A stretch of 64,000 bases of DNA from a virus (taxonomy: Duplodnaviria; Caudoviricetes): IMG/VR virus record IMGVR_UViG_3300013121_000044, positions 1-64,000 of that record. The stretch is one strand, 5' to 3'. How positions within the stretch are numbered: the first letter of the stretch is position 1; every line of letters begins with the position of its first letter. A program made the position numbers and the translations under genes. Under the pieces are notes generated by a model. It ran no database searches, was not told the origin of the DNA, and was given only the letters and a program-made list of their open reading frames with translations. Shown here piece by piece: positions 5,464 to 56,542 of the stretch.

Positions 5464-6060
5464 TTAGTGACCGCCCTCGCTAGGGTGTTTGTACCGGTCG
5501 TAGAGAGCCGACCCGAACAACGCCAAGCCCGCGAGATCCTTCAGGCCCGGTTTGCGTTCCGCAGGGTCACCCACCATCGACGCGAGGGTCGTACCCCCGA
5601 GACCTACGAGCCCGGCGCCCTCCAGGTAGGTGTGCCAGGGGTGCTCGTGCGGGAGGAGCGTGGCTCCGATCATCGCGCCGTAGCTTCCGACGTTGATGGC
5701 GTCCTGGACGCCGAACGCGAGCTTCGTGCGGACGAGCTGGAGGAGGCGTGCTTCGAGGGACCCTACCTTCATCCCAGGGCGGACGCCCGGAGGCGCCGGG
5801 GGTGGTTCCGGGGGCTTCACGGAGTCGTAGAGCCCCTTGGCGGTGTTGATGGCACCCACGCCTGTCCCGACGTTGTGCGCCATCTGGGCGCCGCGCGTGG
5901 CGTTCTGGGCGAGCGGGACGCCCATCATGCCCTTGCCGACGTTCAGCGCCGCGCGGCCCGCCGAAGCGGCTGCCGGGGCGGCGCGCGGCGCCATGCGAGC
6001 GAGCGCGCCCCAGAAGGCGACCTTCTCTGGCTCCGCGAAGCGCTCGTAGAAACCCACCAT
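5464..6060 (-). CDS. Hypothetical virion protein with hydrophobic Gly/Ala segments
   Basis: Start overlaps the sheath stop. KxA motifs (EKVAF, TKLAF). Confidence 0.6.
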   Translation of the reverse strand: MVGFYERFAEPEKVAFWGALARMAPRAAPAAASAGRAALNVGKGMMGVPLAQNATRGAQMAHNVGTGVGAINTAKGLYDSVKPPEPPPAPPGVRPGMKVGSLEARLLQLVRTKLAFGVQDAINVGSYGAMIGATLLPHEHPWHTYLEGAGLVGLGGTTLASMVGDPAERKPGLKDLAGLALFGSALYDRYKHPSEGGH

Positions 6061-9000
6061 CAGCGCTGAACCACGAGGTGGAAAGCGATGTTGTTGAGGG
6101 GGCGCGCGACCCTGGCGCTGAAGACCATTTCAGCGGTGTCCGCCGCCGCTGCGCTCGGGGCCAGGGAGATGATCGACCCCGAGAGAAGGGGCGGCCCGAT
6201 CCGCTGGATGAAGCGGCCCGTCAAGAGCGTGGTGTTGTCCTGGACGGCGCGGTAGACCTCGTTGAGGGCCTCGGGGATGTTGTTGTACTGCCCGAGGAAG
6301 CTCTTGAGGAGCGCCTGATAGAAGACCGACAGGTAGTCGACGTTCTTGACGACCGAGAGCTCCCCCGTCTCCAGGCTGGTGGGGTCCGTGGTGAGCTGGT
6401 GGTTGCAGGAAGGCAGAGCCCCCTCCACCTCTTGCGTGCAGACGAAGAACCCTCCATCAGAAATGGTCGAGAGCTCTTCCTCGGAGAACATGTCCGAAGC
6501 GTTCTTCAGCCGGTCGACCCCGATGAAGGTGCCGTTGGTGAGGCCCATCTGAGGGGGCGTCCCCGCGATGACACCGGCCACGGCGCAGGCGAGGTAGTAC
6601 GACGGCAGGTAACCCGCCAGAGTCCGCACCGAAGGCAGCGTCCTGGGCAGTGAGCCGTCCCGCAGGTCCGCCACGCCGACGAGGTCCGGCCACATGAGCG
6701 TCAGTCGCTTCGAGCGGACCGACTGAGCGATCGCGACGAGCGCGAGTGCTTGGTCCTCGGTCGTGAGCGTACGGCGTACGCGGTAGGCGATCGCGTTGGG
6801 CGCGGTGATGTCGACATAGCGATCTTGGAAGTCGCGCGCGAAGTAGTGCGGGAGTTCCCGGGCAGTGTCCGCCGCGTCGTCGAAACCGTTCGCGATGCGG
6901 AACCGGTTTTCGTTGAGGGTGGTCGCGATGGGGTACGAGAGCACCCGGCCCGAGAACGCTGAGGGTCCGTAGTCGTTCGGGTCGAGCGGAATCTCGACGC
7001 GATCACCGGCGCGAACGCCGGCCTGGAGGAAGGTGGCGCTCGCGTCTTCGAGCTGATTGAAGAGGGCGTCGTTGAGGATGACCTGCGCCGTGCAGCTCCC
7101 CGTGATGGGCATGATCGAGGCAGGGGCGACCGGGCTCTGCGTCCCCGGATCCACCACGTTCGTCCCGCCCGCCGTCACCACGGCGGTCATCAATGCCGAG
7201 AGCGTCGCGTTCGCAGCGACCGCCGCCGCCACCTGAGCGTGCGTCGTGGTGCCGCCGACGGTGATGGTGATGGCGAAACCCACCACCGTGATCGCGAGGG
7301 CGGAGCCTGCGGCGTAGGTGATCGTGTAGGGCCCACCCGTCACCGTGGGCGACAGCATGGCGAAACGAATCGTGCCGAGCGTACCGCCGCCCCCCGTGGA
7401 CACGTCGAGGCGCGCGAGGTTCGAGATCTTGACCGTCCCGTCGGGCCCTCGCACGAGGATCTCGATGTCATCGGCCCCTGCCGCCGCCGTGTCGTCCCAA
7501 CGGCTCGTTCCGGGGATGATCTCCAGGGCCGAGGGGTCTCCGGGGTTCGGGTCGTTGACCGAGCTGTTGACGTGTCCGACGCGGTGCGTCCCGCGCCGAT
7601 TCTGCCACGCGGTGGTCCCCGTGCGGATGAGCCCGATGGTCACCGAGTCGCCGGGCACCACGGACCGCACCCCCACGGAACCGGTGGACGCGGCGTCGAT
7701 GGAGATCGTCCGGTAGAGGTTCGTGACGGCCGATCCCACGGTCTGCGACACGCCCGAGATGGACCCTTCGTACACGGTCTGGGCGACGGGGAGGGACACG
7801 CTCCCGAGCGCGATGCGGAAGCGCTGCATCACGCCACGATCGCGGGCGTAGATCGGGGACGCCTGTTGCTCGAAGGCCGCCTTCGCCGCCGCATGGACGT
7901 TCAGGTCTTGCGTCAGGTTGACGAAGACGTAGAGATCGCCGCGCGACGCGGTCCGAGCGCGCGCGTTGGCGTAGCCCGTCGAGTCGTCCGCCGAGACTCC
8001 GTAGTAGTAGATCGGGACGTTGCCGCCGTTGTCGAGCGCGAGCTTCACCCCCACGGCGAGGGGGTTCCGCGCGTCGAGCTTGCCGATGCCGCGAATCGTC
8101 GGAATGCCGTTGACCGTCTGCTGGTCTGTCGGGACCGCAGATCGAACGCCCTGGAGGTCTTGTCGCAGGGCTCGGTAGCCGAGATAGACCTGCGCGTAGG
8201 AGAGCGCCCGCGTGACCGTGGACGCGCTCGGGGAAGGCGTCGCCACCGTCGGACGAGGCGTGAGGGGGAGGCTCAGGGTCACGCCCCCCTTGATCACCAG
8301 CTTGTCCGAACCCGGCTCCGGGAAGACGATGAGGGTGCGCGTGGGATCCGTGAGTTCGCGCGTGGAGAGGGTCCGTTCGATACGGGCCTCCCCCAGCGCG
8401 TCGTACACCCACCGATCCGCGCCCGTCGTGCCTCCGGTCATGCCCGACACGAGGAAGACTGCGTTCGCCACGGTCTCGGTGATGGTGACGTTACCGAAGG
8501 CGCCCGCTGCGTCGTTCGTCAGGTTGAGAGTGTTCCCAGACCCCGGGGCGGCGGTGATGGCGAGGCCCCCTACCACCCCGTTGATGGCCGTGACCATGGC
8601 GTCGCGCACCTGGGACGCGGACCACCCGGGGGTGATCGGAACGGCTACACGACCGCCTGCGACCACGCCGTCTCGATCGAACTCGAAGACAGTCGCCGGG
8701 TTCACCCCGTCGTTGAGCGTGAAGGTTTCCCCCTCGTCGGCGCCCCCGGCCATACCCACGACCAGGAACCCGGCGTCCACCACCGTGTCCGTGATCGCGA
8801 CGTTACCGGCCACGAGGCAACGGTCCGCTGCGAGGTTCACGACCCCGGCACCTCCGGGAGAAGCCGAGATGCGCAGCCCCGCGCCCACGCCCTGGATGGC
8901 TGTGACGATCGCGCCGCGCACGGTGGCCTGAGAGTCGCCTACCGTGAAGGGGATCGCGACGTTTCCGCCGCTGACCCCGCCCCCCGAATCGAACTCGAAC

Positions 9001-9737
9001 ACCGTGGCAGGGTTCACGCCGTCGTTGAGCGTGAAGGTTTCGCCGTCGACGAGGGCTGCGCCGCCCCCCGCAGGCACGGTGATGGAACCCGTGGCGAAGG
9101 CTCCCACGAGCGCGGACTCGGCGACGGCGGTCATCGACCCGGTCGCCGTGGCGTCCGGGGTGGGGAGCTGCTGCGTGATGCGCAGGAGCGCCTCGTTGCC
9201 GGCCGGGATCAGCCCGTCCCCGTTCGGCTCGCCGACGGACGCGATGGTTCGCGCCACGGTCTGGCCCGAGCTCGATGTGAGGATGATCCGATCGCCCGGT
9301 TGAACCCCTGCCTGCACGAGGTTCGTCGTCACGGAGGTGAACGTGATGAGGGTCCGGTCCGCCGCCGTGGTCGTCACGCGCGTCCCGAGCACCGGGGCGA
9401 TGCCCGAGGAGAGATACGTCGAACCCAGGACGACGCGGGGGGTGCGCAGGGTCACGCGCGCCGAGCCGTGGTCGACCCGGGCGCCTGCGCTCTGACCGGG
9501 GAAGCCGCCGTCGAGCACCGTGACGGCGTCGGTGCCCGTGGCGGGCGGCGCGTACGTGGCGTCCTGCTCCAGTTGCCCGTAGGCCGAGGGGAGCAGGATC
9601 TGATCCCCGTCATCGGGGTAGTCCAGTACGTCGTACGCCGGGCCCACGATCACGGCGTTGAGGTCGGGGGTCGCGGGGGTCGCCGAGGGCTGGGCGATCT
9701 CCTGGAAGATCAGGATCAGAGGCTTGAGGGACGCCAT
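6060..9737 (-). CDS. Tail sheath protein (1225 aa, with large insertions)
   Basis: N-terminal IFQEIAQPS...AVIVGPAY. C-terminal sheath signature YLACAVAG...HQLTTD...ELSVVKNVDY...PLNNI. Upstream of the tube gene. Confidence 0.85.
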   Translation of the reverse strand: MASLKPLILIFQEIAQPSATPATPDLNAVIVGPAYDVLDYPDDGDQILLPSAYGQLEQDATYAPPATGTDAVTVLDGGFPGQSAGARVDHGSARVTLRTPRVVLGSTYLSSGIAPVLGTRVTTTAADRTLITFTSVTTNLVQAGVQPGDRIILTSSSGQTVARTIASVGEPNGDGLIPAGNEALLRITQQLPTPDATATGSMTAVAESALVGAFATGSITVPAGGGAALVDGETFTLNDGVNPATVFEFDSGGGVSGGNVAIPFTVGDSQATVRGAIVTAIQGVGAGLRISASPGGAGVVNLAADRCLVAGNVAITDTVVDAGFLVVGMAGGADEGETFTLNDGVNPATVFEFDRDGVVAGGRVAVPITPGWSASQVRDAMVTAINGVVGGLAITAAPGSGNTLNLTNDAAGAFGNVTITETVANAVFLVSGMTGGTTGADRWVYDALGEARIERTLSTRELTDPTRTLIVFPEPGSDKLVIKGGVTLSLPLTPRPTVATPSPSASTVTRALSYAQVYLGYRALRQDLQGVRSAVPTDQQTVNGIPTIRGIGKLDARNPLAVGVKLALDNGGNVPIYYYGVSADDSTGYANARARTASRGDLYVFVNLTQDLNVHAAAKAAFEQQASPIYARDRGVMQRFRIALGSVSLPVAQTVYEGSISGVSQTVGSAVTNLYRTISIDAASTGSVGVRSVVPGDSVTIGLIRTGTTAWQNRRGTHRVGHVNSSVNDPNPGDPSALEIIPGTSRWDDTAAAGADDIEILVRGPDGTVKISNLARLDVSTGGGGTLGTIRFAMLSPTVTGGPYTITYAAGSALAITVVGFAITITVGGTTTHAQVAAAVAANATLSALMTAVVTAGGTNVVDPGTQSPVAPASIMPITGSCTAQVILNDALFNQLEDASATFLQAGVRAGDRVEIPLDPNDYGPSAFSGRVLSYPIATTLNENRFRIANGFDDAADTARELPHYFARDFQDRYVDITAPNAIAYRVRRTLTTEDQALALVAIAQSVRSKRLTLMWPDLVGVADLRDGSLPRTLPSVRTLAGYLPSYYLACAVAGVIAGTPPQMGLTNGTFIGVDRLKNASDMFSEEELSTISDGGFFVCTQEVEGALPSCNHQLTTDPTSLETGELSVVKNVDYLSVFYQALLKSFLGQYNNIPEALNEVYRAVQDNTTLLTGRFIQRIGPPLLSGSIISLAPSAAAADTAEMVFSARVARPLNNIAFHLVVQR

Positions 9738-9751
9738 GGTTGTCCCGAAGG

Positions 9752-10501: not shown

Positions 10502-10502
10502 G

Positions 10503-12251: not shown

Positions 12252-13172
12252 TCAGTTCTGGCGCTGGTTGAAGACGAGCTGCTGCATGCCGGTGAGCATG
12301 GGGAGCCCGATGCCGATGCAGGAGTACACGAAGAACTTGACGATGTCGGCGCGCTGCTCGACGAAGAGGGTGCAGTCCTGGAGGTACCAGAAGCGCCCGA
12401 GGTAGTTCTCCGGACAGAAGAGCCACGCCTCGTCCGGCAGGTAGATGTCGCTCTTGAGGGTCGTGACCAGAGGGACGCCCCAGAGCGCGTCCTCCTTGTC
12501 GATGCCCTCGCGGTAGTGAGCCGCCGCGATCGAGTCGCCGATGACCGTCGCGGGGAGGTCGATCATGTCGGTCTGGCGCGACTTCGACATGAGCCCCTTG
12601 CCCACGGGCTTCCTGCGGTCGTAGAGGGCGCGGCACGCCTGGGCCCAGCCCGTGGCCGTGAGGCGCGGGAGCTCCGTGCGCTGGACGCTGGGGTTGCGGT
12701 TGATCGCCATCAGGCACGTGCGCCGGAAGTACACGTCCTCCTGGTCGGCGATGTCCTTGACCGAGTTGTCGGCCAGGAGCTTCCGCACGTCGGTCCGGTA
12801 CGTCATCAGCTCGAACTTGTTCTTGATGAACTCGTCCGATTGGATCTTCCCGAAGAAGACCGGGACGCGGCGCAGGTTGTAGAAGCGGGCCTTGGGCGTG
12901 CCGTAGAACTGGACGTACGTGGCCACCGACTGAGGCTCGATGTCCAGGAACTTCATCGGCTGGTCCGAGTCGGGCCAGACATCCAGCTCGTCGGCCGTGA
13001 CGCGCTTCGGCGGGAGGATTTCGCGGCACGCCGCCTCCTGGCGGACGATCTCGCGGATGAGGGCGGTCCCAGCGTCCGCAGCCTCCTTGGTGTGGCCTTG
13101 ATCGAGCAAGTCCACGAAGTTCTCGTTCAGCACCTGGGCGCTGACCTGGGTCGTCTCCATCTCGTACGACAT
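12252..13172 (-). CDS. Major capsid protein (HK97-like fold)
   Basis: 306 aa with strongly biased codons and an AAGGAG RBS. IREIVRQEAACREILPP...KDIADQED pattern. Follows the protease, scaffold-like and decoration genes. Confidence 0.8.
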   Translation of the reverse strand: MSYEMETTQVSAQVLNENFVDLLDQGHTKEAADAGTALIREIVRQEAACREILPPKRVTADELDVWPDSDQPMKFLDIEPQSVATYVQFYGTPKARFYNLRRVPVFFGKIQSDEFIKNKFELMTYRTDVRKLLADNSVKDIADQEDVYFRRTCLMAINRNPSVQRTELPRLTATGWAQACRALYDRRKPVGKGLMSKSRQTDMIDLPATVIGDSIAAAHYREGIDKEDALWGVPLVTTLKSDIYLPDEAWLFCPENYLGRFWYLQDCTLFVEQRADIVKFFVYSCIGIGLPMLTGMQQLVFNQRQN

Positions 13173-13221: not shown

Positions 13222-13746
13222 TCAGCCCCAGCAGCACGCCTCGAAGATCACGTCGAGGCGCCCGTCGCGGAGACCGTCCGGACCGACCCAGCCCACGATC
13301 TGCTTGCCGTCACCGAGGACCTTGATCTCGAAGTTGCCGGCGTTGGCGATGAGGGGGTCGTTGGCCGCGAAGGTGAGCCCGTTGACCGCCGTGGTGTAGA
13401 AACGTGCGAGGCCCCGCAGCGCGGTGAGGCGTCCGACCTGACGGCCCGTCAGGTCCACGTCGCCTTCGTGCACGAAGAAGAGGGGCTTGGGCAGCACGGC
13501 TCCGACTCCCGAGAGCACGGGCGAAGTCCCCGGCACCCAGGTGTTGTCGCTCGCCAGCATCACGATCGTGCCCGGGACGATCGTCCCCGGCTGGATGAGG
13601 CCCATGGTGTCGGGCGTGCCCGGCCCCGTGCCCTGGGCGTAGGCGTTGGCGATCTCCTGGGCGAGGATTTCGCTGAGGCCGAGGCAGGCGTAGAATGCCT
13701 CCTTGGGGCTCTCGGTTGCCGGGGCGTATCGGTCCTGAAAACGCAT
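13222..13746 (-). CDS. Putative head decoration protein
   Basis: Immediately upstream of the capsid gene, AGGAG RBS, small and beta-rich. Confidence 0.55.
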   Translation of the reverse strand: MRFQDRYAPATESPKEAFYACLGLSEILAQEIANAYAQGTGPGTPDTMGLIQPGTIVPGTIVMLASDNTWVPGTSPVLSGVGAVLPKPLFFVHEGDVDLTGRQVGRLTALRGLARFYTTAVNGLTFAANDPLIANAGNFEIKVLGDGKQIVGWVGPDGLRDGRLDVIFEACCWG

Positions 13747-13782
13747 CTCGTGGTCTCCTGTGGCGGAAGCGTAGTGGGTGTG

Positions 13783-14115
13783 TCAGCCTTGGGCGCGGCG
13801 CAGGATGCGTGCCGCGAACTCATCTTCAGCAGCCTTGCGCCGTTCCGCCTTCGTGAGGGGCGTCGCCGACGCTTCTTTCTCGGCGGGCTCGCCGAGCGGA
13901 CGCGGGGGGTCGGGCGCTTCGATGATCGGCGCGAGCACTCGGCGCAGCGCGTCGTCGTCCGCGAGCTTCGCGCGCACCTCGTCGGGGAGCGGTGCCCCGA
14001 CGCGCGCTTCCAGACGCGCCAGGAGGGGGTCCGGTGCTCCCGAGGAGACTGGCTTCGCATCGGCCTCGTCTGCCATCGCGTCGAGGAGGTTCGCCACCTT
14101 GGTGAGGATCGTCAT
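13783..14115 (-). CDS. Small scaffold-like head protein (KxA motifs)
   Basis: Helical and charged; TKVAN, EKEAS, RKAAE. Confidence 0.6.
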   Translation of the reverse strand: MTILTKVANLLDAMADEADAKPVSSGAPDPLLARLEARVGAPLPDEVRAKLADDDALRRVLAPIIEAPDPPRPLGEPAEKEASATPLTKAERRKAAEDEFAARILRRAQG

Positions 14116-14492
14116 GTCGTGCTCCCGAGTCGTTCACGCAGAAGCGTAAGAGCCCGCGTGGCGGCGAGGATGTCGTTCGCGCGTGCCACCTTCGTGAGGG
14201 CCTCGGCCCGGTCCAGGAGGCGGAGGTCATGCGCGAGCTTCCGAAGAGGGTCACCGGCTCCCTTGCTGTCCGGGGCCGAAGGAGAATCGGGCACGGCGAA
14301 GGTGCCCGACTGTACGGCGTACAGCTCCTCGTAGGTGAGGTCTTGTGCGGACTCCCCGAGCTTCCGGATGTCCTCCGCCAGCTTCCTCATCTCCATGGAC
14401 GCCGTCTTGACGCCTCCATCGCCGGACATGGGAGGCCGTTGCGCGACGCGGGCCTCAATCTCGTGGAGCGTATCGACGAAGGTGTATCTCAT
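14112..14492 (-). CDS. Small head-associated protein (KxA motifs)
   Basis: ATG at 14492 overlaps the upstream stop; VKTAS, RKLAE, RKLAH, TKVAR. Confidence 0.65.
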   Translation of the reverse strand: MRYTFVDTLHEIEARVAQRPPMSGDGGVKTASMEMRKLAEDIRKLGESAQDLTYEELYAVQSGTFAVPDSPSAPDSKGAGDPLRKLAHDLRLLDRAEALTKVARANDILAATRALTLLRERLGSTT

Positions 14493-14680
14493 GGTTCGGC
14501 GAAGTGACGGAGGAGGTCGGGGTGGAAGGCGGACGCCTCGGCGGCGGTCTTGCACGAGCGGAGGTTCGCCTCGGCCTCGCGGAAGAGCGCCTGGACGGCG
14601 GGCTCCGTGGCTTGAAAGGCGCTCTTGCGGAGCTCGGCATGCTCCGCGATCAGGGCCTGCGCTCGCGCCGTCTTGATCAC
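14489..14680 (-). CDS. Small head-associated protein (KxA motifs)
   Basis: 4-bp overlaps on both sides. All 3 Lys lie in KxA. Confidence 0.65.
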   Translation of the reverse strand: MIKTARAQALIAEHAELRKSAFQATEPAVQALFREAEANLRSCKTAAEASAFHPDLLRHFAEP

Positions 14681-15117
14681 GTGAGGAGCGCCTGCGCCAT
14701 CTCGTAGCCGCCGAGGTAGTGCGCCGAGGCGACCTTGTGGATCTGCGTCTCGACACGTTCGGCCGTGGCGTCGTACGCCTGCGCGGCCTCCTTGTTCGTG
14801 ACCGCGACCTGTTCCGCAGCCACCTTCTCGTAGAGGGCGAGCTGGGCCATGAAGCCGTCGCAGATGGCGGCGCCGTACGCGTGCGCCTCCTTGAGGGTCC
14901 CCTGGTGGTCCCGCTGGGCGACCTCGGCGGCGAGCTTCTCCACGTCGGCCATGGGGGACGGCCCCGACAGGGAGGCGGTCTTGGCGCGCGCCTCGGTCGC
15001 GGCGGCCTGCACCGCGTCTTGGACCGCGCTACGCGAAGGGGCCTTGGGGGGCGGGGCGGTGGGGGCGCCGGCTTCGGCGGCCGTCTTGGGGGTCGTGAAG
15101 ATGCCTTGGAGGTTCAT
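14677..15117 (-). CDS. Head-associated/scaffold-like protein (KxA motifs)
   Basis: ATG at 15117 after AGGAG. 7 of 8 Lys lie in KxA. Confidence 0.7.
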   Translation of the reverse strand: MNLQGIFTTPKTAAEAGAPTAPPPKAPSRSAVQDAVQAAATEARAKTASLSGPSPMADVEKLAAEVAQRDHQGTLKEAHAYGAAICDGFMAQLALYEKVAAEQVAVTNKEAAQAYDATAERVETQIHKVASAHYLGGYEMAQALLT

Positions 15118-15131
15118 GGTGCTCCTGAATG

Positions 15132-16898
15132 CTAGGTGGTCAGCAGGATGTGGAGGTTCTCGGAGAGCACGTCGAGGTCGACGGCGGCGTCCGCGTTCGA
15201 TGTCCGGTCCGCGCGCCCCACAAGGGTATCCGCCTGTGCGTTGAGGGGGAGGGCGGCCCACTTGAGGAACCGGTCCCCGCCAGTACGCCGTACGCGAGCG
15301 AGGGCCTCGTCAATCTGGGCGTCGCGCGCGAGTTTTTCGGCCCAGGACGCAGGCGTGAGGGCCGCCGCCTTGAACTCGGTACCCCCGGAGACGGGCACTC
15401 CCTGGTCCGTCATGTACGAGGGGTTTCGGTACGGTGTGAACGCCTTCCGTGCGGCCCGTTCGGTCGCGGTCCCGAGGCCCGCCGCCAGCGGTAGGGCGAG
15501 GGCGGTGTGGAGCGCTTTCCCCCCGAGGACGTGGTGGAGCCCCGCCGCGTAGAGGCCCGTGAAGAGGGCCGTGTTGAGGAGGCGCTTCTTCACGTCCGAC
15601 CGGGAAGCGTCCATCGCGGCGCCTCGGGTCGTTTGATACGTGTGCCCCGTGTAAGGGTCCGTGATCGTCAGGAGGTCCGAGCGCGGGGGTTCGGCCGACC
15701 GGTAGTGCGCGCCGGGTCCGGGCGGGGACGCTTCATCGGACCAGGGCGCGAACGCGCGATCGCGGAGCACGTCCCCGACCGGGCCGTACGAAGCGGTCTT
15801 GAACGTCTGGGGGTACCTGCCGAGCACGGCCACGAGGGCGGGGGTCGCGACGACTAGCCGGTCGAGGGTGTTCTGACTCAGGGCGAGGTGATAGGCGTCT
15901 GCGGCCAGCTTCGCCACTTCCGCTTGACCGAGGAGTCGCGGGTGCGCCACCGCCGCAAGGGGGGTCGCAGGGGCTGCGGCGGTCTTGGGGATCCCAAGCG
16001 CGCGCACGTAGCCGCCGATCAGGGAGTCGGGCTCGGTCCACGCAGTGCGGATTTCGAGGGCCGCGCGCTCGAATCGGTCACGCAGGCGCTCGTGTTGTTC
16101 GAGGCGATCTCCGAGGGCGGCGCTCAGGCGCGTACGTTCGTACGCCACCTTCTGCATCATCCAACCTGTGGGGTCCGCCGGACGGAAGACGAACGAAATG
16201 TCGAAGAAACGGGGAGACGGGTTGAGGACGCAGACCTTCCGCCCGTCGGGGAGGACGGCCCGCATTTGCGTGAGGGCGTGGCGACAATACTGCGCGCGCG
16301 TGGGTGCGCGGTGTCCGCAGATGGTGCACACGTCCCAGCGGACGTGACAGCCCATGGACACGGCCGGGAAGTCTCCGTCACCGATCCGCTGCGGGATTTC
16401 GGGATCCCGTGCGTTGACGTAGCGGAGAAGCAGCTCCACCCGGTGCATTCGGGTGTTCCGAAACGCGTGAGGTACGGTGCCGAGCGACTTCGACGGGTCC
16501 TTGTTGACGTGGTGGCGATAGATGCCGCCGTGTTGCTCAAACGTCTTGTAGTGGTGGGGGAGAGTTTCAGCCTCCGCAACCCACCCCTCCAGGGACGCTG
16601 TGCACTCCGGGTGGCCGCACGTGGCGCGCCGCCCGACCATGTACGGGAGCGCGTTGAACCCGTCCCCGTTTTTGTTGTCGTCGTAGTACTCCCACTCTCC
16701 GAGCGCGTTGACGAGGACGTAGGTGATCCCCTCTTCCGGCTGGACGGTGGTCAGGAAGTCGTATGCGGGAGACTGGCTTTCGGCGAACGCACGTTTCTCG
16801 ATCGACAGACCGCCTCCGTGGTTTCGCCACGCCACGAGCTGGACCGTGGGTTCGCCGGTCTTGGGGAAGCGGTCTTCGAGTTCGAGGAGCTTGCGCAC
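15132..16898 (-). CDS. Prohead (capsid maturation) protease with long C-terminal extension
   Basis: NKNGDGF, HHVNKDP, VSMGC (putative catalytic Ser), CTICGH...YCRH and FFDISFV..PAD. Confidence 0.8.
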   Translation of the reverse strand: MRKLLELEDRFPKTGEPTVQLVAWRNHGGGLSIEKRAFAESQSPAYDFLTTVQPEEGITYVLVNALGEWEYYDDNKNGDGFNALPYMVGRRATCGHPECTASLEGWVAEAETLPHHYKTFEQHGGIYRHHVNKDPSKSLGTVPHAFRNTRMHRVELLLRYVNARDPEIPQRIGDGDFPAVSMGCHVRWDVCTICGHRAPTRAQYCRHALTQMRAVLPDGRKVCVLNPSPRFFDISFVFRPADPTGWMMQKVAYERTRLSAALGDRLEQHERLRDRFERAALEIRTAWTEPDSLIGGYVRALGIPKTAAAPATPLAAVAHPRLLGQAEVAKLAADAYHLALSQNTLDRLVVATPALVAVLGRYPQTFKTASYGPVGDVLRDRAFAPWSDEASPPGPGAHYRSAEPPRSDLLTITDPYTGHTYQTTRGAAMDASRSDVKKRLLNTALFTGLYAAGLHHVLGGKALHTALALPLAAGLGTATERAARKAFTPYRNPSYMTDQGVPVSGGTEFKAAALTPASWAEKLARDAQIDEALARVRRTGGDRFLKWAALPLNAQADTLVGRADRTSNADAAVDLDVLSENLHILLTT

Positions 16899-16901
16899 GG
16901 G

Positions 16902-17987
16902 TCAGTTGCCGTGTTCGTGCAGCGTCTTGGCGTGCTGCATGATCTTCTTGAGGACGGGCGTCCCGTCCCCCGCCATGGCGTTGATTACGTCCGCGTGGAG
17001 CGACATCGGGTTATCGGTCGCGTGCGCGATGAGCTTGGACTCGTCGCGCGTCAGATGGTGGAGCATGTGCAACGCCCACGCCTTTTCGTCGGGGGTGCCC
17101 CGGTCGAGATGCGCGTGCGTGGCCGCGACCAAGCTGTTCACGAACTTCCCCGCCTTCTGCTTCTTCTCAGACAGGGCTTGCGCCATCTGTGCCGCGCGCT
17201 CGGCGGCGATCTGCTTGGCCGCGTTCTCGACGATCGCGGGTTGATCCTTCGATGGTACGCGGGCCTTGGGGGACTGCGGGTTCGCGAGGAAGGCCGTCGC
17301 CGACTGAGCGGCGGGCGCGTATTCGGGGTCCCTCCCGGCGAGCTCCGTGAGCGTGTTCGCGTGGTCCCTGTCTCGGTTGAGGGCCCACTCCTTGTTTTGC
17401 ATGAAACGGACGTTGAAGTCGTCGGTTGCGTGCATGTCGTCGACGAGCTTCCGGGCTTGCTCCTCCCCCGCGAGCTGCCGGGCCTTCGACCACGTCCCGT
17501 AGCCGTGACCCACCACACTGCCGATCGCCGCACCCGGCAGCGCGTAGGTGAGAGCGCCGCGAAGGCGGTTGTCGTCGTCCTTCCAGGCCCCGACGCCACC
17601 TCCGATCGCTGTCCCGATGAGGGCGCCGCGCGCGGTGGGGGATCGCAGCGCATCCCCGAACGCGGAGGAAGTCTTGAGGAGCCCTCGGAGGTCCCGGATC
17701 GCGGCCTCTGCGTTCACGTCGAGGAGGAACTCCCGCTCCTCCGCCGTGTAGCGGCCCTCGGCGGCGAGTTTCTCGATGGCGGCGTCGACGAGGGCGGCTC
17801 CCGCGACGCTCGCGGCGAGAGCCTCGCGCAGAGGGCGCGCCGGGCCCCCACGAGACCCCGCCTCGTGTGAGGCCCACTTTTCGATTGCGGCGAGCGCGTA
17901 GGCGTCCGAGGGCGCCTCGCCCGAGGTGAGAGCCTGTTCTTTGAACCGGACCCACGCCTCCCGTACGGCGTACGGAGGGGTCGTCAC
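16902..17987 (-). CDS. Probable internal virion protein with glycine-zipper segments
   Basis: GTG at 17987 overlaps the upstream stop. GALIGTAIGGGVGA...GAAIGSVVG; EKWAS, EKLAA. Confidence 0.65.
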   Translation of the reverse strand: MTTPPYAVREAWVRFKEQALTSGEAPSDAYALAAIEKWASHEAGSRGGPARPLREALAASVAGAALVDAAIEKLAAEGRYTAEEREFLLDVNAEAAIRDLRGLLKTSSAFGDALRSPTARGALIGTAIGGGVGAWKDDDNRLRGALTYALPGAAIGSVVGHGYGTWSKARQLAGEEQARKLVDDMHATDDFNVRFMQNKEWALNRDRDHANTLTELAGRDPEYAPAAQSATAFLANPQSPKARVPSKDQPAIVENAAKQIAAERAAQMAQALSEKKQKAGKFVNSLVAATHAHLDRGTPDEKAWALHMLHHLTRDESKLIAHATDNPMSLHADVINAMAGDGTPVLKKIMQHAKTLHEHGN

Positions 17988-18223
17988 AGTCCCCTCCGCA
18001 GGCGCTGGAGCGCGTCGAGACCCTCGCGGATGCGCAGGTTCGTTGCGCGGTCGGCCGCCACCTTCATGGCGATCGCCTCGACGGCGGACGGGAGGGTCGG
18101 CTCCTTGGGGGGCGCGAGACCTTGCGCGGTCTTCACGCCGTGCGCCAGCTTCCACCAGCCGTGCGTTCGGAGGGCCTCGCGGAGGCTTGCGGAGACGGGG
18201 ACGTTTGCGTGGGTGTGCGGCAT
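17984..18223 (-). CDS. Small hypothetical virion protein (KxA motifs)
   Basis: ATG at 18223; WKLAH, VKTAQ, MKVAA. Confidence 0.6.
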   Translation of the reverse strand: MPHTHANVPVSASLREALRTHGWWKLAHGVKTAQGLAPPKEPTLPSAVEAIAMKVAADRATNLRIREGLDALQRLRRGL

Positions 18224-18224
18224 G

Positions 18225-19670: not shown

Positions 19671-20463
19671 GGAGGGCCTCCTCGCGAGCTCGCGGCAGAG
19701 CACGCTCGACTTCGGACAACGTGGCGAGCACTTTGGCGTACTCCTGACGGGCGTCGCGCGCCTGTTTGAGGAGGCGCGTCGCGCGCGTCGGGACGCCAAC
19801 GAGGAATTCGCGCGCTTCGGCGAGCTTCTCCTGGGACACGGCGAGCGGCGCGAGCCGCAGGAGTTCCCGCACGCCGTTGAGCTCCGGGAGGAGATCCTCG
19901 TCGAGCACCGCAATCGCGTTCTTCTCGAACGCCACGTGGTCGTGACCATCCGCCCGGCAGTCTTCCGCCAGGGCGCGTAGATTGGACTGCCACCGCACGT
20001 CGAGCTGCCGGAGGTTCAGGGGGAGTTCCTGCGACAGCTTCTGGAGGTGACTCCAGCGCGTCACCGCCGGAGGTGTCTTCGGCAGATAGGGGTCGATCGT
20101 CTCGGCGGCGGTCTTGGTGCGAACCCACGCGCGCGGATTCGGCAGATCGGGATAGCTCGCTTGCTTGATCGCGGGGGCGGGAGCGGCGGTCGCCTGGAGG
20201 CGCGTGATGACTACCTCCGGATCGACGGGATCAAAATCGACGCGACGGTCCGCTTCCCCTCGCTTGGCGGCGTACTTGTGGCCGAAGACGGCGGTGTTGG
20301 TGTCGCGCCCGAGCCGCCGGATCTGTTCCGGGTTCAGCCCGTGGTCACGTGCCACCTTTTCCACCAGGGTCGTCAGATCGTTGCCCCCGAGGGCTCCCTG
20401 GGCGGCACAAAACGCATCGGCTACCGACTTCGCCTGACGCGCATATTCATCCGGGCTCCACAT
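19660..20463 (-). CDS. Hypothetical virion protein (KxA motifs)
   Basis: ATG at 20463; EKVARDHGLNPEQIRRL; IKQAS, TKTAA, EKLAE. Confidence 0.7.
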   Translation of the reverse strand: MWSPDEYARQAKSVADAFCAAQGALGGNDLTTLVEKVARDHGLNPEQIRRLGRDTNTAVFGHKYAAKRGEADRRVDFDPVDPEVVITRLQATAAPAPAIKQASYPDLPNPRAWVRTKTAAETIDPYLPKTPPAVTRWSHLQKLSQELPLNLRQLDVRWQSNLRALAEDCRADGHDHVAFEKNAIAVLDEDLLPELNGVRELLRLAPLAVSQEKLAEAREFLVGVPTRATRLLKQARDARQEYAKVLATLSEVERALPRAREEALRAR

Positions 20464-20479
20464 CGACGGAAGGATAGGG

Positions 20480-21196: not shown

Positions 21197-21207
21197 CCAG
21201 TCTGAGG

Positions 21208-23754: not shown

Positions 23755-23788
23755 TGTCCTCGCGTGAAAGTATACGCGAGGTGTGAGG

Positions 23789-28205: not shown

Positions 28206-28212
28206 CGGGGCC

Positions 28213-51868: not shown

Positions 51869-52025
51869 GATCGGGTGAGCGTCACGTAGGCCGGTACGTG
51901 ATAATGTCCTCCACACCCGGTCAGAATGGGCGCGCCCGGCCGCGCGCCCTCTGCTCCTCGGGGGTGCGCCGGCCCCGAGGAGAGTGCTCAGCCGGCGTTT
52001 CTTTTTGCCCACAAAAGAGGATCCC

Positions 52026-52817: not shown

Positions 52818-52823
52818 CGGGTC

Positions 52824-54476
52824 TCACCCCGGCGCCGAGCTTCCGAGGTTGACCTCGTTGATGGCGATCTGAATCGCGAGGCGCGCGAACACCAGGGCGT
52901 GCAGGAAGTCGTCCGGATCCACGGGGGCGTGGCGCCACACCTTCCGGCCGCCCGCGTCCTTCGAGGTCGTCTCCTCGTACTCCGCGAGGATGTGCTTGAA
53001 GGCGGCCTTCACGTACGCGCTGGGCTCCTTCGGGAACTGAAACTCCTTGCGGAGCATCGCCATCATGGCCGAGTCAATCGCCACGGTGCGGTTCACGGTG
53101 TAGCTGTTCCGGGACTGGTCCCAGACGACGTAGTGGGCGGCGTTGGGGCCCGTGTAGCGAAACTTCACGACGCGCTGCGGGTTGGCCATGCTGGTGCGGA
53201 GCATGTCCATGTTCATGTTGCCCTCGCCCGCGTCGCCGCCGACTAGGAGCTGGTTGCCCATGTCGTAGTTCCTGAGGACCGTGCGGATCTCCTCGTTCTC
53301 CTGCACGGCGTGAAGGCCGGGGAATACCTTGAAGTAGAGGACGCGCAGGCGGCCCGAGGTGAGGCGCCCCAGGACGACCAGCACCGTGAACGAGTGGCCG
53401 TCCTTGCCCCCGCCCGACCAGTCGATGCCCGCGCCGACCTTCATGACGTTCTGCATGAGCTCAGGGGTCGGCTTCGGGCTGATCGGAGGGCCGTCCGCTG
53501 CGGACCACAGGATCTCCTCCGTGACGAGTCTGCGACCTACGGAGTCCGAGATGCCGAGCACCTCGTTTCGGAACTTCGGCAGGGAGTAGGCGTCGGGCCC
53601 CTCCATGGTGCCGAGGATGTCGATCCACTCGGCCCGCGCCTCGTCCCGCTTCGGGCCCTCGGGCCACGCGGCGGGCACGCCTCGGATCATGATGGGGCGC
53701 GAGATGTGGAAGCCCTTGTAGGGCGCCTCCACGTCCGCGTTCGTGTCGACCCACATGCCGTGGCGGGGATTCAGGTAGGCCCCGCAGGCGCCGCAGAGAG
53801 GGCCCCACTTGCCGAGCTGCTTCTCACTGACGATGATCGAATAGCGCGAACACGAGTCACAGCGAATCGCCCACTCGGTCTGCGAGGACTTCTTCCAAAG
53901 GTCCTCGATCCCGTTCTCCAAGGTCTTCGGCGTGCCGCAGTAGGTCTCGCGGCGGACGGTGGAGTTTCGCAGGCATTCTCGGATCTCGGGGCGCACCGCG
54001 TCGAGAAGAACGTCCTGAACCTCGTCGATCAGTACGTGGTCGGCGGAGTTGCCGCGTACGCGATCCGCGTCCTCGTCGGCGTACGTGAACACGATCTCCG
54101 AACCGTTCGTGAACGAACGCGTAAGCACGCGGTTCGGGAGTGATGCGTCGATGAAGTTCTCGCGGATATGAGGCGAGTAGTGAATGGCCTTGCCGACACG
54201 GAGCGTGGAGAACTTCAGCGTTTGCTCCTCAGACGGCGTCACGAAGAGTGACTTGAAGAAGTCGCGCGCCACGGAGTCCGTAAGGAGCTCCACCATCAGC
54301 ATGATGGACTTGCCGATCTGGCGACTCGTCTTGAGGAGCGTTTTCTTCCAAGCACCGTCGTACGGAGCGACGAGCATGGGGTAGTCGACGAGGGAGAGAG
54401 GGCGGCCCTCCCACTGGATCATCCGCTCGCACATCTGCGAGCGTGTCAGCTCGATTCGTTTACGATCCAAGCTCAC
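52824..54476 (-). CDS. terL: Terminase large subunit
   Basis: SRQIGKS, VRGNSAD, LIDEVQD, GTPKT, a Zn-finger, and nuclease motifs GIDWSGG...PDDFLHA. Confidence 0.88.
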   Translation of the reverse strand: MSLDRKRIELTRSQMCERMIQWEGRPLSLVDYPMLVAPYDGAWKKTLLKTSRQIGKSIMLMVELLTDSVARDFFKSLFVTPSEEQTLKFSTLRVGKAIHYSPHIRENFIDASLPNRVLTRSFTNGSEIVFTYADEDADRVRGNSADHVLIDEVQDVLLDAVRPEIRECLRNSTVRRETYCGTPKTLENGIEDLWKKSSQTEWAIRCDSCSRYSIIVSEKQLGKWGPLCGACGAYLNPRHGMWVDTNADVEAPYKGFHISRPIMIRGVPAAWPEGPKRDEARAEWIDILGTMEGPDAYSLPKFRNEVLGISDSVGRRLVTEEILWSAADGPPISPKPTPELMQNVMKVGAGIDWSGGGKDGHSFTVLVVLGRLTSGRLRVLYFKVFPGLHAVQENEEIRTVLRNYDMGNQLLVGGDAGEGNMNMDMLRTSMANPQRVVKFRYTGPNAAHYVVWDQSRNSYTVNRTVAIDSAMMAMLRKEFQFPKEPSAYVKAAFKHILAEYEETTSKDAGGRKVWRHAPVDPDDFLHALVFARLAIQIAINEVNLGSSAPG

Positions 54477-55128: not shown

Positions 55129-55526
55129 TCGTCGATCAGCTCCCGAGCGTCTGTGAAACAAGCTCGGACCGAAGTCGCATGAGGGAGGTCTGCGTGGTCT
55201 CCTGCCAGGGCTTTCAACCCAGAAACCGTCACCGTGCGCGTCCCCTTTGCGTCGTCTTGCGTGACCGTGAGGACGAGGCTCTCCCGAAGCTGACGCTGTT
55301 CTTCCGTCGCGGACCGAAACGCTTCATTCAGCCACGCGCGTGCCTCAGGCAGAAGAAGGCCCCACTTCTCCGAGATCTGGATGCACGCGAGCCGGACGTT
55401 GCCGATCAGGATCGACCGTTCGAGCCAGTCGAGCCCACGCGCCTTGAGCTCCGAGGGGTCGACCCCCGAAGGTACTTCGGCGAGCGGCGTCGCCGCGACG
55501 AACTCTCTCTCCGTGGGTGGAGCCAT
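55125..55526 (-). CDS. Hypothetical protein
   Basis: Coupled to both neighbours. Confidence 0.55.
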   Translation of the reverse strand: MAPPTEREFVAATPLAEVPSGVDPSELKARGLDWLERSILIGNVRLACIQISEKWGLLLPEARAWLNEAFRSATEEQRQLRESLVLTVTQDDAKGTRTVTVSGLKALAGDHADLPHATSVRACFTDARELIDE

Positions 55527-56542
55527 CAGACCGCCGCCCTTCGTACGCCTGCCGACCGGAGCGTCTCCCCGAGAACCCGCTTGAGCTCCATGGGGAGCGT
55601 CGGCAAGACCGCCGCCAGCTTCGCGGCGTCCATCTGACCTCCAGGCGCGATCTCGCGTACCACCTCCGGCCCGAGCGAGTCGGCGTAGAAGTCCGGCGGG
55701 AAGGCCACGAGGTCTTGCAGGTCGTAGGCCCCTCCCCCGATGTCGATCATCTGCGCGCTCACCTTCATGGGCGTGTTGAAGACCGTGTGGAGGGGGTCCG
55801 GAATCTTCCGCCCGTAGTGGGCGTCAACCCCTGCGGTCTTGTCGAGCTTGAGGAGGAGCGACGCGAGCTTCACCCTTGCGTCGAACGACCGGAGGGCGGT
55901 GGGTTCCTGGCGCAGCGCCGTCGCGGCGCGCTCGTAGGCGTCGCGGACTTCGGCGGTCTTGGCGAGGTGAGCCCTCGCCGCGAGCCCGTCGAGGACCACC
56001 CCCGGGTTGGCGAGGGCGGACATCCCCCACGCCTGGGCGGCGGGCTGGAGGGTGACCCCGTGGCGCTCGGCGGCTTGCGCCAGCTTGTGGAAGGCGGCGA
56101 CACGAGCCGGGAGAGCGAGACGATCCGCCTGTTCGAGGAGGCGGGCTTCGGCCATCTTGACTTCGCGGGGGCCACGAACGGGGTAGGTGTGATTCTCCGG
56201 GAAAATGAAGTCGTCGTCCGATTCTGCCACCTTCTCAGTGACGCGGACGAGGGCCTCCTGCGGTACGCCGTACGCCTCCAGGGCCTCGGCGATCTTCCCC
56301 CGGACGAAGGCAGGGGCCAGGGGGTTAGAGCCGACGTAGAGGTGGGACACGACCGCGTGCGCGGGGGTGTGGATGGGGTACCGCCGCTGCGTGGGCCACG
56401 CGAACGCGGTCGAGGGCAGATCCGAGGGGTCGTCCTCGAACTCCGCCGTCTTGAGGATCGGTTCGACGCCGGGGTGGCGGGCCACGAGGTGGCGGAGGTG
56501 GGCGTGGGCGGCGTCGTGGTAGATGTCGATGATCATCGTCAC
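55526..56542 (-). CDS. Probable head protein (KxA-rich)
   Basis: 9 of 13 Lys lie in KxA. Internal repeat AFAWP..RRYPI / DFIFP..HTYPV. Confidence 0.7.
   Translation of the reverse strand: MTMIIDIYHDAAHAHLRHLVARHPGVEPILKTAEFEDDPSDLPSTAFAWPTQRRYPIHTPAHAVVSHLYVGSNPLAPAFVRGKIAEALEAYGVPQEALVRVTEKVAESDDDFIFPENHTYPVRGPREVKMAEARLLEQADRLALPARVAAFHKLAQAAERHGVTLQPAAQAWGMSALANPGVVLDGLAARAHLAKTAEVRDAYERAATALRQEPTALRSFDARVKLASLLLKLDKTAGVDAHYGRKIPDPLHTVFNTPMKVSAQMIDIGGGAYDLQDLVAFPPDFYADSLGPEVVREIAPGGQMDAAKLAAVLPTLPMELKRVLGETLRSAGVRRAAV

Follow-up and report, generated by a model that had tools for sequence, protein, structure and literature searches.

A Lys-x-Ala motif enriched in the head proteins of an uncultured phage as the probable cleavage code of its prohead protease

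Why do the probable head proteins of an uncultured phage place an alanine two residues after so many of their lysines? The question is raised by a 64,000-nucleotide stretch of DNA (henceforth termed the window) that belongs to a genome of 187 kb with 66% GC. An initial annotation of the window had reported that the motif Lys-x-Ala (KxA) accounts for much of the lysine in several of these proteins and had attributed this pattern to a prohead protease of K-x-A specificity. We re-derived the gene coordinates by independent gene calls, which agreed with the earlier ones, and all reported counts proved exact: KxA contains 3/3 lysines in 14489-14680, 7/8 in 14677-15117, 3/4 in 17984-18223, 7/12 in 19660-20463 and 9/13 in 55526-56542, while 13 copies are present in 23789-25678 (more than 10 had been claimed), eight in the protease, and the capsid protein carries T-K-E-A-A at residues 28-32. 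Alanine at Lys+2 is also enriched beyond composition, as judged by within-protein shuffles and binomial tests, with per-protein p values from 0.02 down to 4e-5 for the proteins listed. Across the 13 genes of positions 13222-25678, a stretch that lies between the capsid gene and the RNA polymerase gene and was picked before the counts were inspected, 66 of 169 lysines are followed by Ala at +2 versus 28.3 expected (p=4e-12), and the remaining genome holds 192 KxA versus 202 expected. Compared with the other 207 genes, the odds ratio of these 13 genes is 5.7 (Fisher's test, p=1e-20). The claim that tail and replication proteins show no such saturation was borne out by per-protein counts against expectation: KxA enrichment was looked for in tail, replication and RNA polymerase proteins and was absent.

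Such an excess might reflect composition (68% GC, Ala-rich, Lys-poor), a DNA-level motif or chance among 220 proteins, and the 13-25% Ala content of the proteins in a GC-rich genome would seem to invite this reading. It is refuted by several observations and retains a negligible probability. The counts surpass both composition-preserving shuffles and per-protein expectations; the 12 enriched proteins show a 3.2x excess of Ala at K+2, and no other offset from -6 to +8 is raised; R-x-A enrichment was looked for in the same proteins and is absent; and the Lys and Ala codons at KxA sites mirror overall codon usage. In addition, nearly all of 79 related IMG/VR loci that carry the protease, spanning 29-71% GC, are KxA-enriched (1.3-3.2x), which rules out a high-GC artefact, and the relatives at 29-45% GC keep the enrichment with a z of 21.7. 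When all gapped residue pairs up to three positions apart were compared in related loci, KxA ranked first or second (z 30, 18 and 22), with CxxC as its sole rival.

The enrichment falls in the same syntenic genes in these relatives, and head-building proteins with a KxA excess occur in hundreds of relatives. In protein families whose members average 22-45% identity to the window protein, KxA lysines are 54% conserved versus 26% for other lysines (MWU p 3.6e-6), and many single KxA sites are conserved at 90% or more. A sequence logo of 1872 sites adds preferences at -2, -1, +1, +3 and +4 and gives the fuller motif [F/L/M]-E-K-[T/V/L]-A-[S/E/A]-[E/D], in which Ser is the most enriched residue directly after Ala (3.7x). 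Pro is depleted from -2 to +5, and Pro and Gly are both depleted across about eight residues; the Pro depletion fits an extended peptide in a protease cleft. As a positive control, we ran these statistics on T4 gp68, gp21 and gp22; IxE and LxE came out as the top pairs, with 16 copies in gp22 versus 5.8 expected. We consider it probable that KxA is the core of the cleavage motif of the phage's own prohead protease, with the cut probably after Ala. This assignment draws on sequence statistics, structural models and analogy, and the proposal would be a known process, proteolytic head maturation, with an undescribed cutting rule. We found no earlier account of a K-x-A head-protease code in the literature examined.

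The protease itself (588 aa, 15132-16898, minus strand) combines a catalytic domain at about residues 16-249 with a helical, scaffold-like C-terminal half. It matches the PHROG 'head maturation protease' over residues 116-212 (E 4.5e-7), and on the basis of its AF2 model it is a serine protease with the fold of T4 gp21 and herpesvirus assemblin. In VIA-align, the N-terminal domain of the model superposes on T4 gp21 (5jbl_B) with Z 9.7 and an rmsd of 2.9 A over 138 residues, a score that clearly exceeds the Z of 6.3 of the best unrelated match; herpesvirus proteases match weakly (Z 4.5-5.8 over 105-129 residues). The candidate catalytic residues H129 (nt 16512-16514) and S181 (nt 16356-16358), the latter being the serine of the S-M-G-C motif pointed out earlier, are invariant in 36 homologues, and hhalign pairs them with His 85 and Ser 140 of T4 gp21 in an alignment that is formally insignificant (E 0.34). 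Six of the eight KxA sites lie past the catalytic domain. The same asymmetry holds across the family, with 287 sites versus 76 expected in the C-terminal half (3.8x) and 38 versus 49 in the catalytic domain (0.78x). At the end of the protease domain, K250-V251-A252 (16143-16151, minus strand; verified by translation) is the predicted self-cleavage site: all 36 homologues, the most distant of them at 37% identity, keep K250 and A252, and a K-[V/I/L]-A follows the FFDIS motif by about 20 residues in most of 75 IMG/VR homologues. The model has one long linker of low confidence (residues 249-260, pLDDT <50), and the site sits in it.

A comparable pattern was found in the major capsid protein (306 aa, 12252-13172, minus strand), for which an AF2 model (pLDDT 89.7) matches the HK97 fold (Foldseek E 3e-9; VIA Z 15-18) and a profile search recovers the phage G gp27 capsid protein 6wkk (E 6e-23). 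Its K29-E30-A31 (nt 13080-13088, minus strand) is the predicted maturation site, and a cut at A31 would leave a mature protein of 275 aa. Of 60 family members, with identities as low as 23%, 55 have a KxA within residues 19-42; the first 45 residues of the family hold 73 KxA versus 12 expected, and the mature part holds 43 versus 78 (0.55x, P 9e-6). Together, the capsid and protease counts form the pattern of site plus avoidance that is expected of a cleavage code. Two structural points count against cleavage here. K29 lies at the start of a predicted helix, and residue 28 of the model superposes on HK97 residue 119. Mature HK97 capsid protein begins at residue 104, and on this superposition a cut at A31 would give an N-arm shorter than that of HK97. 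The capsid data also bear on the idea that the KxA lysine undergoes covalent modification (isopeptide cross-linking, acylation or methylation, for example). Lysine is the invariant anchor of the motif and HK97-fold capsids are known to use lysines in cross-links, but KxA is scarce in just that part of the capsid protein, the mature body, in which cross-links would be expected, and is densest in the small scaffold-position proteins and the protease tail. A modifying enzyme was looked for in the head block and not found. Modification is highly improbable.

If KxA is a cleavage motif, head maturation might proceed as follows. The small KxA-saturated proteins (13783-15117), the larger head proteins (17984-25678 and 55526-56542) and the protease, whose C-terminal half is long and helical, would all be assembled into the procapsid. 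Once activated, the protease would free itself at the invariant K250-V-A252 linker and shorten the capsid protein by about 31 residues at K29-E-A31. Scaffold-like proteins would be cut to short peptides and internal proteins would lose propeptides, as with the T4 gp21 and phiKZ/SPN3US proteases. Taken together, the gp21 fold, the invariant K-V-A in the linker, the capsid site with its surrounding avoidance, the enrichment in the syntenic genes of relatives and the conservation of the lysines support the earlier proposal of a prohead protease with K-x-A specificity, and all comparative tests run, on sequences and models, agree with it.

The scissile bond is most likely the one after Ala, with Lys as P3 and Ala as P1, by analogy with T4 gp21, the phiKZ/SPN3US enzymes and herpesvirus assemblin. 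T4 gp21 cuts at (L/I)-x-E, with sites in gp23, gp24, gp22, gp67, gp68 and internal proteins. Herpesvirus assemblins, with the consensus (V/L/I)-x-A|S, cut after Ala and before Ser. It is also conceivable, though clearly less probable, that the protease recognizes the motif but cuts on the C-terminal side of Lys (K|x-A), which would make Lys P1 and Ala P2'. At conserved sites Lys is as invariant as Ala, the sequence data are compatible with either bond, and the HK97 prohead protease, a member of the same fold superfamily, cuts its capsid protein after Lys. However, T4 gp21, the nearest structural relative, cuts after the i+2 residue of an i/i+2 pair, and the Ala-then-Ser preference of the assemblins recurs here in the 3.7x excess of Ser. 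The phiKZ/SPN3US motif (AXE) also pairs positions i and i+2 and is cut after the second of them (PMC10052503).

Three known systems each share part of the organization of this phage. In common with T4, it has the gp21 protease fold, a protease gene that adjoins small scaffold or core genes and the capsid gene, and an i/i+2 motif with which the scaffold proteins are saturated and which is found in the protease and near the capsid N-terminus. It differs from T4 in the motif, which is Lys-x-Ala rather than Leu/Ile-x-Glu, in the C-terminal protease extension, which is about 340 residues long and absent from T4 gp21, and in its small capsid protein of phage G-type HK97 fold that is not gp23-like; a common N-terminal targeting leader across unrelated proteins was looked for and not found. 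In the KxA-rich set, [LI]xE is mildly raised (38 versus 25 expected), for which K-L-A-E sites may be a partial cause, and [ASG]xE was tested and is not raised. The prohead proteases of phiKZ (gp175), 201phi2-1 and SPN3US (gp245) cut after (A/S/G)-x-E (PMC10052503, PMC5694885). With these the phage shares its nature as a large myovirus with a virion-associated multisubunit RNA polymerase, and the processing proposed here resembles theirs, in which many head-internal proteins are cut at a short motif, the protease cleaves itself and propeptides contain several motif copies. In contrast, those enzymes use P1 Glu with a small P3, where we infer P1 Ala and P3 Lys, the head genes have no sequence similarity and the genome is smaller here. 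With herpesvirus assemblin the phage shares the fold superfamily (a weak match), the Ala-Ser preference and a protease fused to a scaffold-like C-terminal part with release by self-cleavage, which is predicted here; the anchor residue is Lys rather than hydrophobic, and host and virus lineage differ.

The candidate substrates differ in the strength of their signal; those described here up to the product of 20480-21196 are all encoded on the minus strand. Four small KxA-saturated proteins lie between the protease and capsid genes (13783-15117) and are predicted to form a degradable scaffold or core. Besides the two already given, 13783-14115 has 4/6 and 14112-14492 has 5/6 lysines in KxA. Conserved sites include K6 and K50 of 13783-14115, K85 and K101 of 14112-14492 (6/6 orthologues), K19 and K44 of 14489-14680 (6/6), and K46, K61 and K128 of 14677-15117 (18-20 of 20 orthologues). 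In phages Arash and D181, as in relatives with 29-71% GC, small ORFs at the same position are KxA-saturated too. On the far side of the protease gene, two proteins without overall enrichment carry conserved sites. In the 361-aa product of 16902-17987, K73-L-A is KxA in 12/12 orthologues, with the other lysines 15% conserved, which predicts a 75-residue propeptide; in the 481-aa product of 18225-19670, K12-L-A is conserved in 16/16 and K344-V-A in 14/16. Between them, the 79-aa head-module protein of 17984-18223 conserves K25 in 7/8 and K54 in 8/8 orthologues. The 267-aa head-module protein of 19660-20463 (p 8e-4) is predicted from its sequence to be a multiply cut internal or scaffold protein; K36, K100, K117 and K181 stay KxA in 21-24 of 25 orthologues whose mean identity is only 32%. 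The 848-aa head-module protein of 21208-23754 has seven KxA with marginal significance (p 0.05), and three of its sites are conserved (K227 in 23/25, K530 in 22/25, K560 in 25/25). For a polyprotein-like substrate, which the initial annotation had also envisaged, the strongest plausible candidate on sequence grounds is the 629-aa Ala/Gly-rich protein of 23789-25678 (p 0.005). Its KxA form N-terminal (37-177) and C-terminal (505-611) clusters, K87, K505 and K586 are conserved in 16/16 and K108 and K517 in 14/16 orthologues, and enrichment recurs in the orthologues from loci L001 (15/32 Lys) and L011 (21/35 Lys). Outside the head block, 55526-56542 lies upstream of the terminase gene and encodes a 338-aa protein with a DUF6582 region (Pfam, E 4.6e-7; KxA p 4e-5), in which K31/A33, K104/A106, K129/A131 and K225/A227 are all invariant in 22 homologues at 37-80% identity. 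Low-GC relatives encode a KxA-rich protein of about 320 aa after the terminase gene. Two of the 12 enriched proteins are weak. The 238-aa product of 20480-21196 (3/5 Lys in KxA, nominal p 0.03) is probably not a substrate, as no more than 1-2 of 25 orthologues keep its sites, and 28551-29057, with 2/2, has too few lysines to judge.

Cultured relatives include Salmonella phage Arash (OQ632216, PMC10585845), with 39-41% identity in the protease domain and 40% in the capsid protein, and Vibrio phages D181, D148 and D69. More distant are Bacillus phage G (gp19 protease and the gp27 capsid protein) and the Bixzunavirus mycobacteriophages (Alice gp90/gp92). These relatives have homologous protease and capsid proteins and an agreeing gene order. 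The KxA excess recurs in gp220, gp223 and gp225 of Arash and in genes 275, 278 and 280 of D181; it is modest in gp19 and gp21 of phage G and in gp90 of Alice. R-V-A takes the place of KxA at the capsid-protein site of phage G, and Alice lacks any basic-x-Ala at that site. The records of these relatives and the papers on them that were consulted contain no annotation of protease specificity and report no cleavage, and Arash gp222 is annotated only as 'structural protein'. LC-MS of Arash virion preparations detected the KxA-rich proteins in corresponding gene positions at 80-100% coverage, among them gp220, which has 10/21 Lys in KxA and the position of 19660-20463; gp218, the homologue of the 21208-23754 product, is likewise a virion protein by MS (PMC10585845). 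That proteins in corresponding gene positions are KxA-rich and present in virions counts for the cleavage reading; their coverage speaks against it in that the proteins are not simply lost from the head. The coverage would suit KxA as an uncut short linear motif, either a docking or 'packaging code', an alternative that the initial annotation had also named, through which scaffold and internal proteins would bind the capsid interior, the portal or one another, or a helix cap in these Ala-rich helical proteins. Many KxA sites lie in predicted helices, including K330 and K522 of the protease, and repeats in scaffold proteins could give multivalent binding. Yet an uncut motif leaves unexplained the invariance in a disordered linker that ends the protease domain, the one fixed N-terminal capsid site with avoidance elsewhere in that protein, the depletion of Pro and Gly and the failure of Arg to substitute for Lys, and the statistics parallel the proven cleavage code of T4. 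We thus regard an uncut motif as rather unlikely and cleavage by the prohead protease as the better account.

Within the virion block, multisubunit RNA polymerase genes (26406-34620, minus strand; Pfam Rpb2 and Rpb1 domains) encode beta fused to beta'-N (29050-34620) and beta'-C (26406-28205). They lack KxA enrichment, with 9 copies versus 12.2 expected and 1 versus 2.8. The last 56 residues of the beta/beta'-N fusion protein hold four overlapping KxA.

The window covers the initial 64 kb of one contig, which is 186,803 bp long and has 66% GC, and independent gene calling with a codon-bias model reproduced the gene coordinates of the initial annotation. On the minus strand, one virion block runs from about 36.8 kb to 1.6 kb. 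It starts with a 572-aa putative portal protein, a label carried over from the initial annotation. Two RNA polymerase subunits assigned by Pfam follow, a beta/beta'-N fusion (29050-34620) and beta'-C (26406-28205). After these come a series of unannotated proteins (25678 down to 16902) and the 588-aa protease (15132-16898). Four small proteins (15117 down to 13783) and a 174-aa protein separate the protease from the 306-aa capsid protein (12252-13172); all of these are encoded on the minus strand. Tail genes come after the capsid gene; they include that of a 1225-aa protein (6060-9737, minus strand) whose C-terminal 180 residues match a tail-sheath PHROG (E 5e-6), so this is probably a myovirus whose sheath protein is unusually long. 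The terminase gene lies at 52824-54434. PHROGs and Pfam gave almost no match for the head proteins of the block, and a megablast search of a phage collection with 10 kb of the sequence returned no match.

The initial annotation had counted, protein by protein, lysines followed by alanine at position +2 (Lys-x-Ala, KxA) in probable head proteins. All of these counts were exact on recount, and a test of Ala at Lys+2 against each protein's own Ala content, with 2000 shuffles, showed enrichment beyond composition. Twelve proteins were enriched at p<0.05 in this protein-by-protein test, among the strongest 55526-56542 (9 KxA against 2.2 expected, p 4e-5), 14112-14492 (5 against 0.8), 14677-15117 (7 against 2.0) and 19660-20463 (7 against 1.8). 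To avoid picking proteins after the data had been seen, we also tested, as an unbiased set, every one of the 13 genes that lie between the capsid and polymerase genes. Here, 66 of 169 lysines lie in KxA versus 28.3 expected (p 4e-12), whereas the remaining 207 genes of the genome contain 192 versus 202 expected (Fisher odds ratio 5.7, p 1e-20). Ala is raised 3.2-fold at K+2 in the enriched set and occurs at about background level at all other offsets from -6 to +8, which rules out helical periodicity as the cause. Arg-x-Ala showed no enrichment in the same set. Weaker flanking preferences comprise T/V/L at +1, S/E at +3 and D/E at +4. Since the Lys and Ala codons at these sites mirror general usage, the signal resides at the protein level; this ordinary codon use and the variable middle residue exclude a DNA-level motif. 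Beyond the window, nominal enrichment also occurs in 78677-79627 (minus strand; 4/7 Lys in KxA, p 0.007), 91109-91735 (plus strand; 7/11, p 0.009) and 177215-178384 (plus strand; 7/25, p 0.006). Chance alone would bring about 11 of 220 proteins below p 0.05, so these three may be noise, or they may be additional packaged substrates.

Relatives of the locus are numerous. The 588-aa protease has more than 990 metagenome homologues, on contigs of up to 196 kb, and 356 homologues in IMG/VR, from which we sampled 79 related loci with 10-kb flanks. A single-sequence scan of IMG/VR with the capsid protein found no relative. The order of protease, four small proteins, 174-aa protein and HK97-fold capsid protein recurs in 74 of the 79 loci and in a cultured relative, Salmonella phage Arash (OQ632216). 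Across a GC range of 29-71%, KxA is 1.3-3.2-fold enriched on the protease strand in nearly all loci. We then scanned every residue pair at spacings 1-4 with loci grouped by GC. KxA ranked first in the high-GC (z 29.8) and mid-GC (z 18.0) groups; in the low-GC group (z 21.7) CxxC alone ranked above it, which makes KxA the top non-Cys pair of the scan. Enrichment in low-GC relatives argues that KxA is not a high-GC peculiarity and, together with the within-protein shuffles, the other offsets and the Arg-x-Ala control, rules out a composition artefact. The same statistics applied to T4 gp68, gp21 and gp22 as a positive control returned IxE and LxE as top pairs (16 versus 5.8 expected in gp22). 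From locus to locus, the same syntenic genes account for the enrichment: the small ORFs lying between the protease and capsid genes, the protease's C-terminal half, and orthologues of both 19660-20463 and 23789-25678. A sequence logo built from 1872 sites shows [F/L/M/I] at -2 and E at -1, followed by K, [T/V/I/L], A, S (3.7-fold) or E, and then E/D, with Pro depleted from -2 to +5 and Gly depleted at -1, +1 and +4.

In orthologue alignments with 22-45% mean identity to the window protein, lysines within KxA are conserved in 54% of cases versus 26% for other lysines (p 3.6e-6). Sites retained in 85-100% of orthologues are K46, K61 and K128 of 14677-15117; K36, K117 and K181 of 19660-20463; K227, K530 and K560 of 21208-23754; K87, K108, K505, K517 and K586 of 23789-25678; and K25 and K54 of 17984-18223. 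A single fully conserved N-terminal site is present in each of two proteins without overall enrichment, 16902-17987 (K73) and 18225-19670 (K12). Four invariant K/A pairs are found among the 38 invariant columns of 55526-56542. We dropped 20480-21196 and 13222-13746 from the candidate substrates because their KxA sites are not conserved. The protein encoded by 55526-56542 (minus strand), which contains a DUF6582 region, lies upstream of the terminase gene, and in distant relatives of low GC content a KxA-rich protein of about 320-340 aa likewise adjoins the terminase gene, directly on its downstream side (IMG/VR loci L044, 8460-9422, and L054, 8389-9372). A protein-atlas search with 55526-56542 returned only 'hypothetical' viral clusters, and a literature search for DUF6582 returned no papers.

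The AF2 model of the protease contains a confident N-terminal domain (residues ~16-249, pLDDT ~80-94), a linker at 249-260 with pLDDT below 50, and a helical C-terminal half. In VIA-align, T4 gp21 (5jbl_B) ranked first with Z 9.7 and an rmsd of 2.9 Å over 138/164 residues (model residues 16-240), followed by the next unrelated chain at Z 6.3 and herpesvirus proteases at Z 4.5-5.8. A Foldseek search with the same model was weak (E 0.37), and the PHROG 'head maturation protease' profile matched residues 116-212 (E 4.5e-7). On the modelled structure, the 588-aa protein thus shares its protease fold with T4 gp21 and herpesvirus assemblin. Neither the window protease nor 36 homologues matched a Pfam model at a meaningful E value, including the HK97-type S78 and ClpP-type S14/S49 families, to which distant kinship is possible; a PDB search with the sequence profile returned only designed coiled coils. 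Invariant in the 36 homologues are H129 and S181, the latter being the serine of the S-M-G-C motif singled out in the initial annotation (here V-S-M-G-C). An hhalign comparison of the family with T4 gp21, formally insignificant (E 0.34) and used as a pointer to residues only, aligns them with His 85 and Ser 140, which we take to be the catalytic residues of gp21.

The distribution of KxA within the protease follows this architecture. The disordered linker behind the catalytic domain is precisely where the invariant K250-V-A252 is located, and most of 75 further homologues have K-[V/I/L]-A about 20 residues after an FFDIS motif. Family-wide, KxA is slightly under-represented in the catalytic domain (38 versus 49 expected) and strongly over-represented in the C-terminal half (287 versus 76). 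In the low-GC loci L035, L039-L044, L052-L054 and L068, the boundary K-V-A is in some cases replaced by K-M-F, K-V-I or K-V-F and is otherwise missing, and a KxA lies 10-20 residues beyond; these may be sub-clades with a moved site or a shifted specificity.

The AF2 model of the protein encoded by 12252-13172 (pLDDT 89.7) has an HK97-type fold: Foldseek matched it with HK97 and with encapsulins (E 3e-9 to 1e-8), VIA Z scores were 15-18, and a profile search matched phage G gp27 (6wkk) at E 5.8e-23. The protein is an HK97-fold major capsid protein and a sequence homologue of gp27. KxA occurs at residues 19-42 in 55 of 60 capsid family members, down to 23% identity, directly preceding a conserved F-I-R...R-E-E segment; the window protein carries K29-E-A31. 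Over the first 45 residues, the family contains 73 KxA versus 12 expected, and over the rest of the protein 43 versus 78 (0.55-fold, P 9e-6). The phage G capsid protein has R-V-A within one residue of the aligned position, and the 6wkk chain sequence in the PDB, which is nearly full length, is uninformative on the mature end. Retention of KxA at one place and its avoidance in the mature body is the pattern that protease-driven selection would produce. The main rival reading, in which KxA is a docking motif that stays uncut, leaves this avoidance unexplained, as it does the site in the protease linker and the depletion of Pro around the motif.

The best-supported interpretation of these sequence patterns is that KxA serves as the cleavage motif of the gp21-fold protease. 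The enzyme would free itself at K250-V-A252 (16143-16151, minus strand), trim the capsid protein at A31, degrade the small proteins in scaffold position and remove propeptides from larger head proteins. T4 and phiKZ-like phages are well-known examples of head maturation by proteolysis at short motifs. To our knowledge, few prohead-protease specificities have been mapped, and all of those end in Glu. The initial annotation had set KxA apart from the Glu-ending T4 and phiKZ codes, and this distinction held against (L/I)-x-E and (A/S/G)-x-E: [ASG]xE is not raised in the KxA-rich set (57 versus 54.8 expected), and no x-E pair was among the top eight in the pair scan of the 79 loci. [LI]xE reached 38 versus 25 expected, an excess that may be partly explained by K-L-A-E sites. 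T4 also differs in placing a common cleavable N-terminal leader on unrelated cargo. No such leader is visible in this genome, and a genome-wide one is unsupported, as KxA in the first 35 residues totals 30 versus 34 expected; 11 of the 27 proteins with such a site are encoded between the capsid gene and 25705-26406. Our literature search found prohead-protease papers without a K-x-A motif and no publication describing a KxA specificity. The process is of a known kind, and the candidate Lys-x-Ala specificity read from these sequences is new.

Herpesvirus assemblin cuts after Ala and before Ser. The motifs of T4 and phiKZ/SPN3US are i/i+2 pairs that are cut after i+2 (PMC10052503). By analogy with these enzymes, and because Ser is the favoured residue after Ala in the logo, the cut is probably placed after Ala. 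Cleavage directly after Lys, the position used by the HK97 protease, appears unlikely.

Cultured relatives identified by tblastn are Arash and the Vibrio phages D181, D148 and D69, with phage G gp19 and Bixzunavirus gp90 proteins as more distant matches. Arash is a 180.8-kb myovirus in which the gene order is kept, and its morphology agrees with the myovirus reading of the window phage. The Arash counterpart of the protease, gp222, contains K218-V-A220. The Arash proteins gp220, gp223 and gp225 are KxA-rich, typically as E-K-x-A-S, and the capsid protein (gp226) carries K27-E-A29. These last four proteins were detected in virion preparations, as were the polymerase subunits, which rank with the most abundant virion proteins by MS (PMC10585845). 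This virion proteome, the only published one of a relative, gives coverage and lists neither a protease nor termini (PMC10585845). The high peptide coverage shows that the KxA-rich Arash proteins, or their fragments, stay in the particle.

A more ambitious reading extends one code across the clade. We see roughly even chances that all members share an undescribed code, Lys-x-Ala followed by Ser/Glu, read by a T4-gp21-fold protease with a herpesvirus-like P1 Ala. The clade in question comprises hundreds of uncultured 100-200-kb phages in which genes for a multisubunit RNA polymerase lie within the virion gene block; its cultured members are Arash and the Vibrio D181-type phages, and phage G and the Bixzunavirus mycobacteriophages may also belong to it. 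If such a code exists, the cleaved head-internal proteome of uncultured phages would become readable, including scaffold debris, propeptides and possibly tethers of the packaged polymerase, as at the KxA cluster of the beta/beta' fusion, and scaffold, propeptide and mature parts could be separated from sequence alone. This would concern a very large, mostly uncultured phage group whose head genes lack annotation. A conserved KxA code read by a gp21-fold enzyme would also show that this fold has changed its specificity from lineage to lineage, and would tighten the functional parallel with assemblin (Ala, then Ser). The idea is directly testable, as cultured members exist and virion LC-MS data are available for Arash.

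In the 1856-aa polymerase fusion (29050-34620), four overlapping KxA (K1801, K1815, K1819, K1820) lie within the last 56 residues, where the sequence reads ...E-D-K-S-A-V-K-K-A-A-W..., and the rest of the protein is not enriched; this cluster could be a cleavable tail or a tether of a packaged polymerase. The fusion also has a weak LAGLIDADG match at residues 628-694. Many protease homologues are about 830-1010 aa long, and the long ones (P0024, P0033, P0047, P0048, P0063, P0088, P0097, P0104 and P0113) contain intein/Hint or LAGLIDADG domains (PF14528, PF05203, PF14890, PF13403). In three IMG/VR loci (L017, L024 and L026), the protease alignment picks up again at query residue 179-184, so that the insert falls at the putative active-site motif, the invariant V-S-M-G-C.
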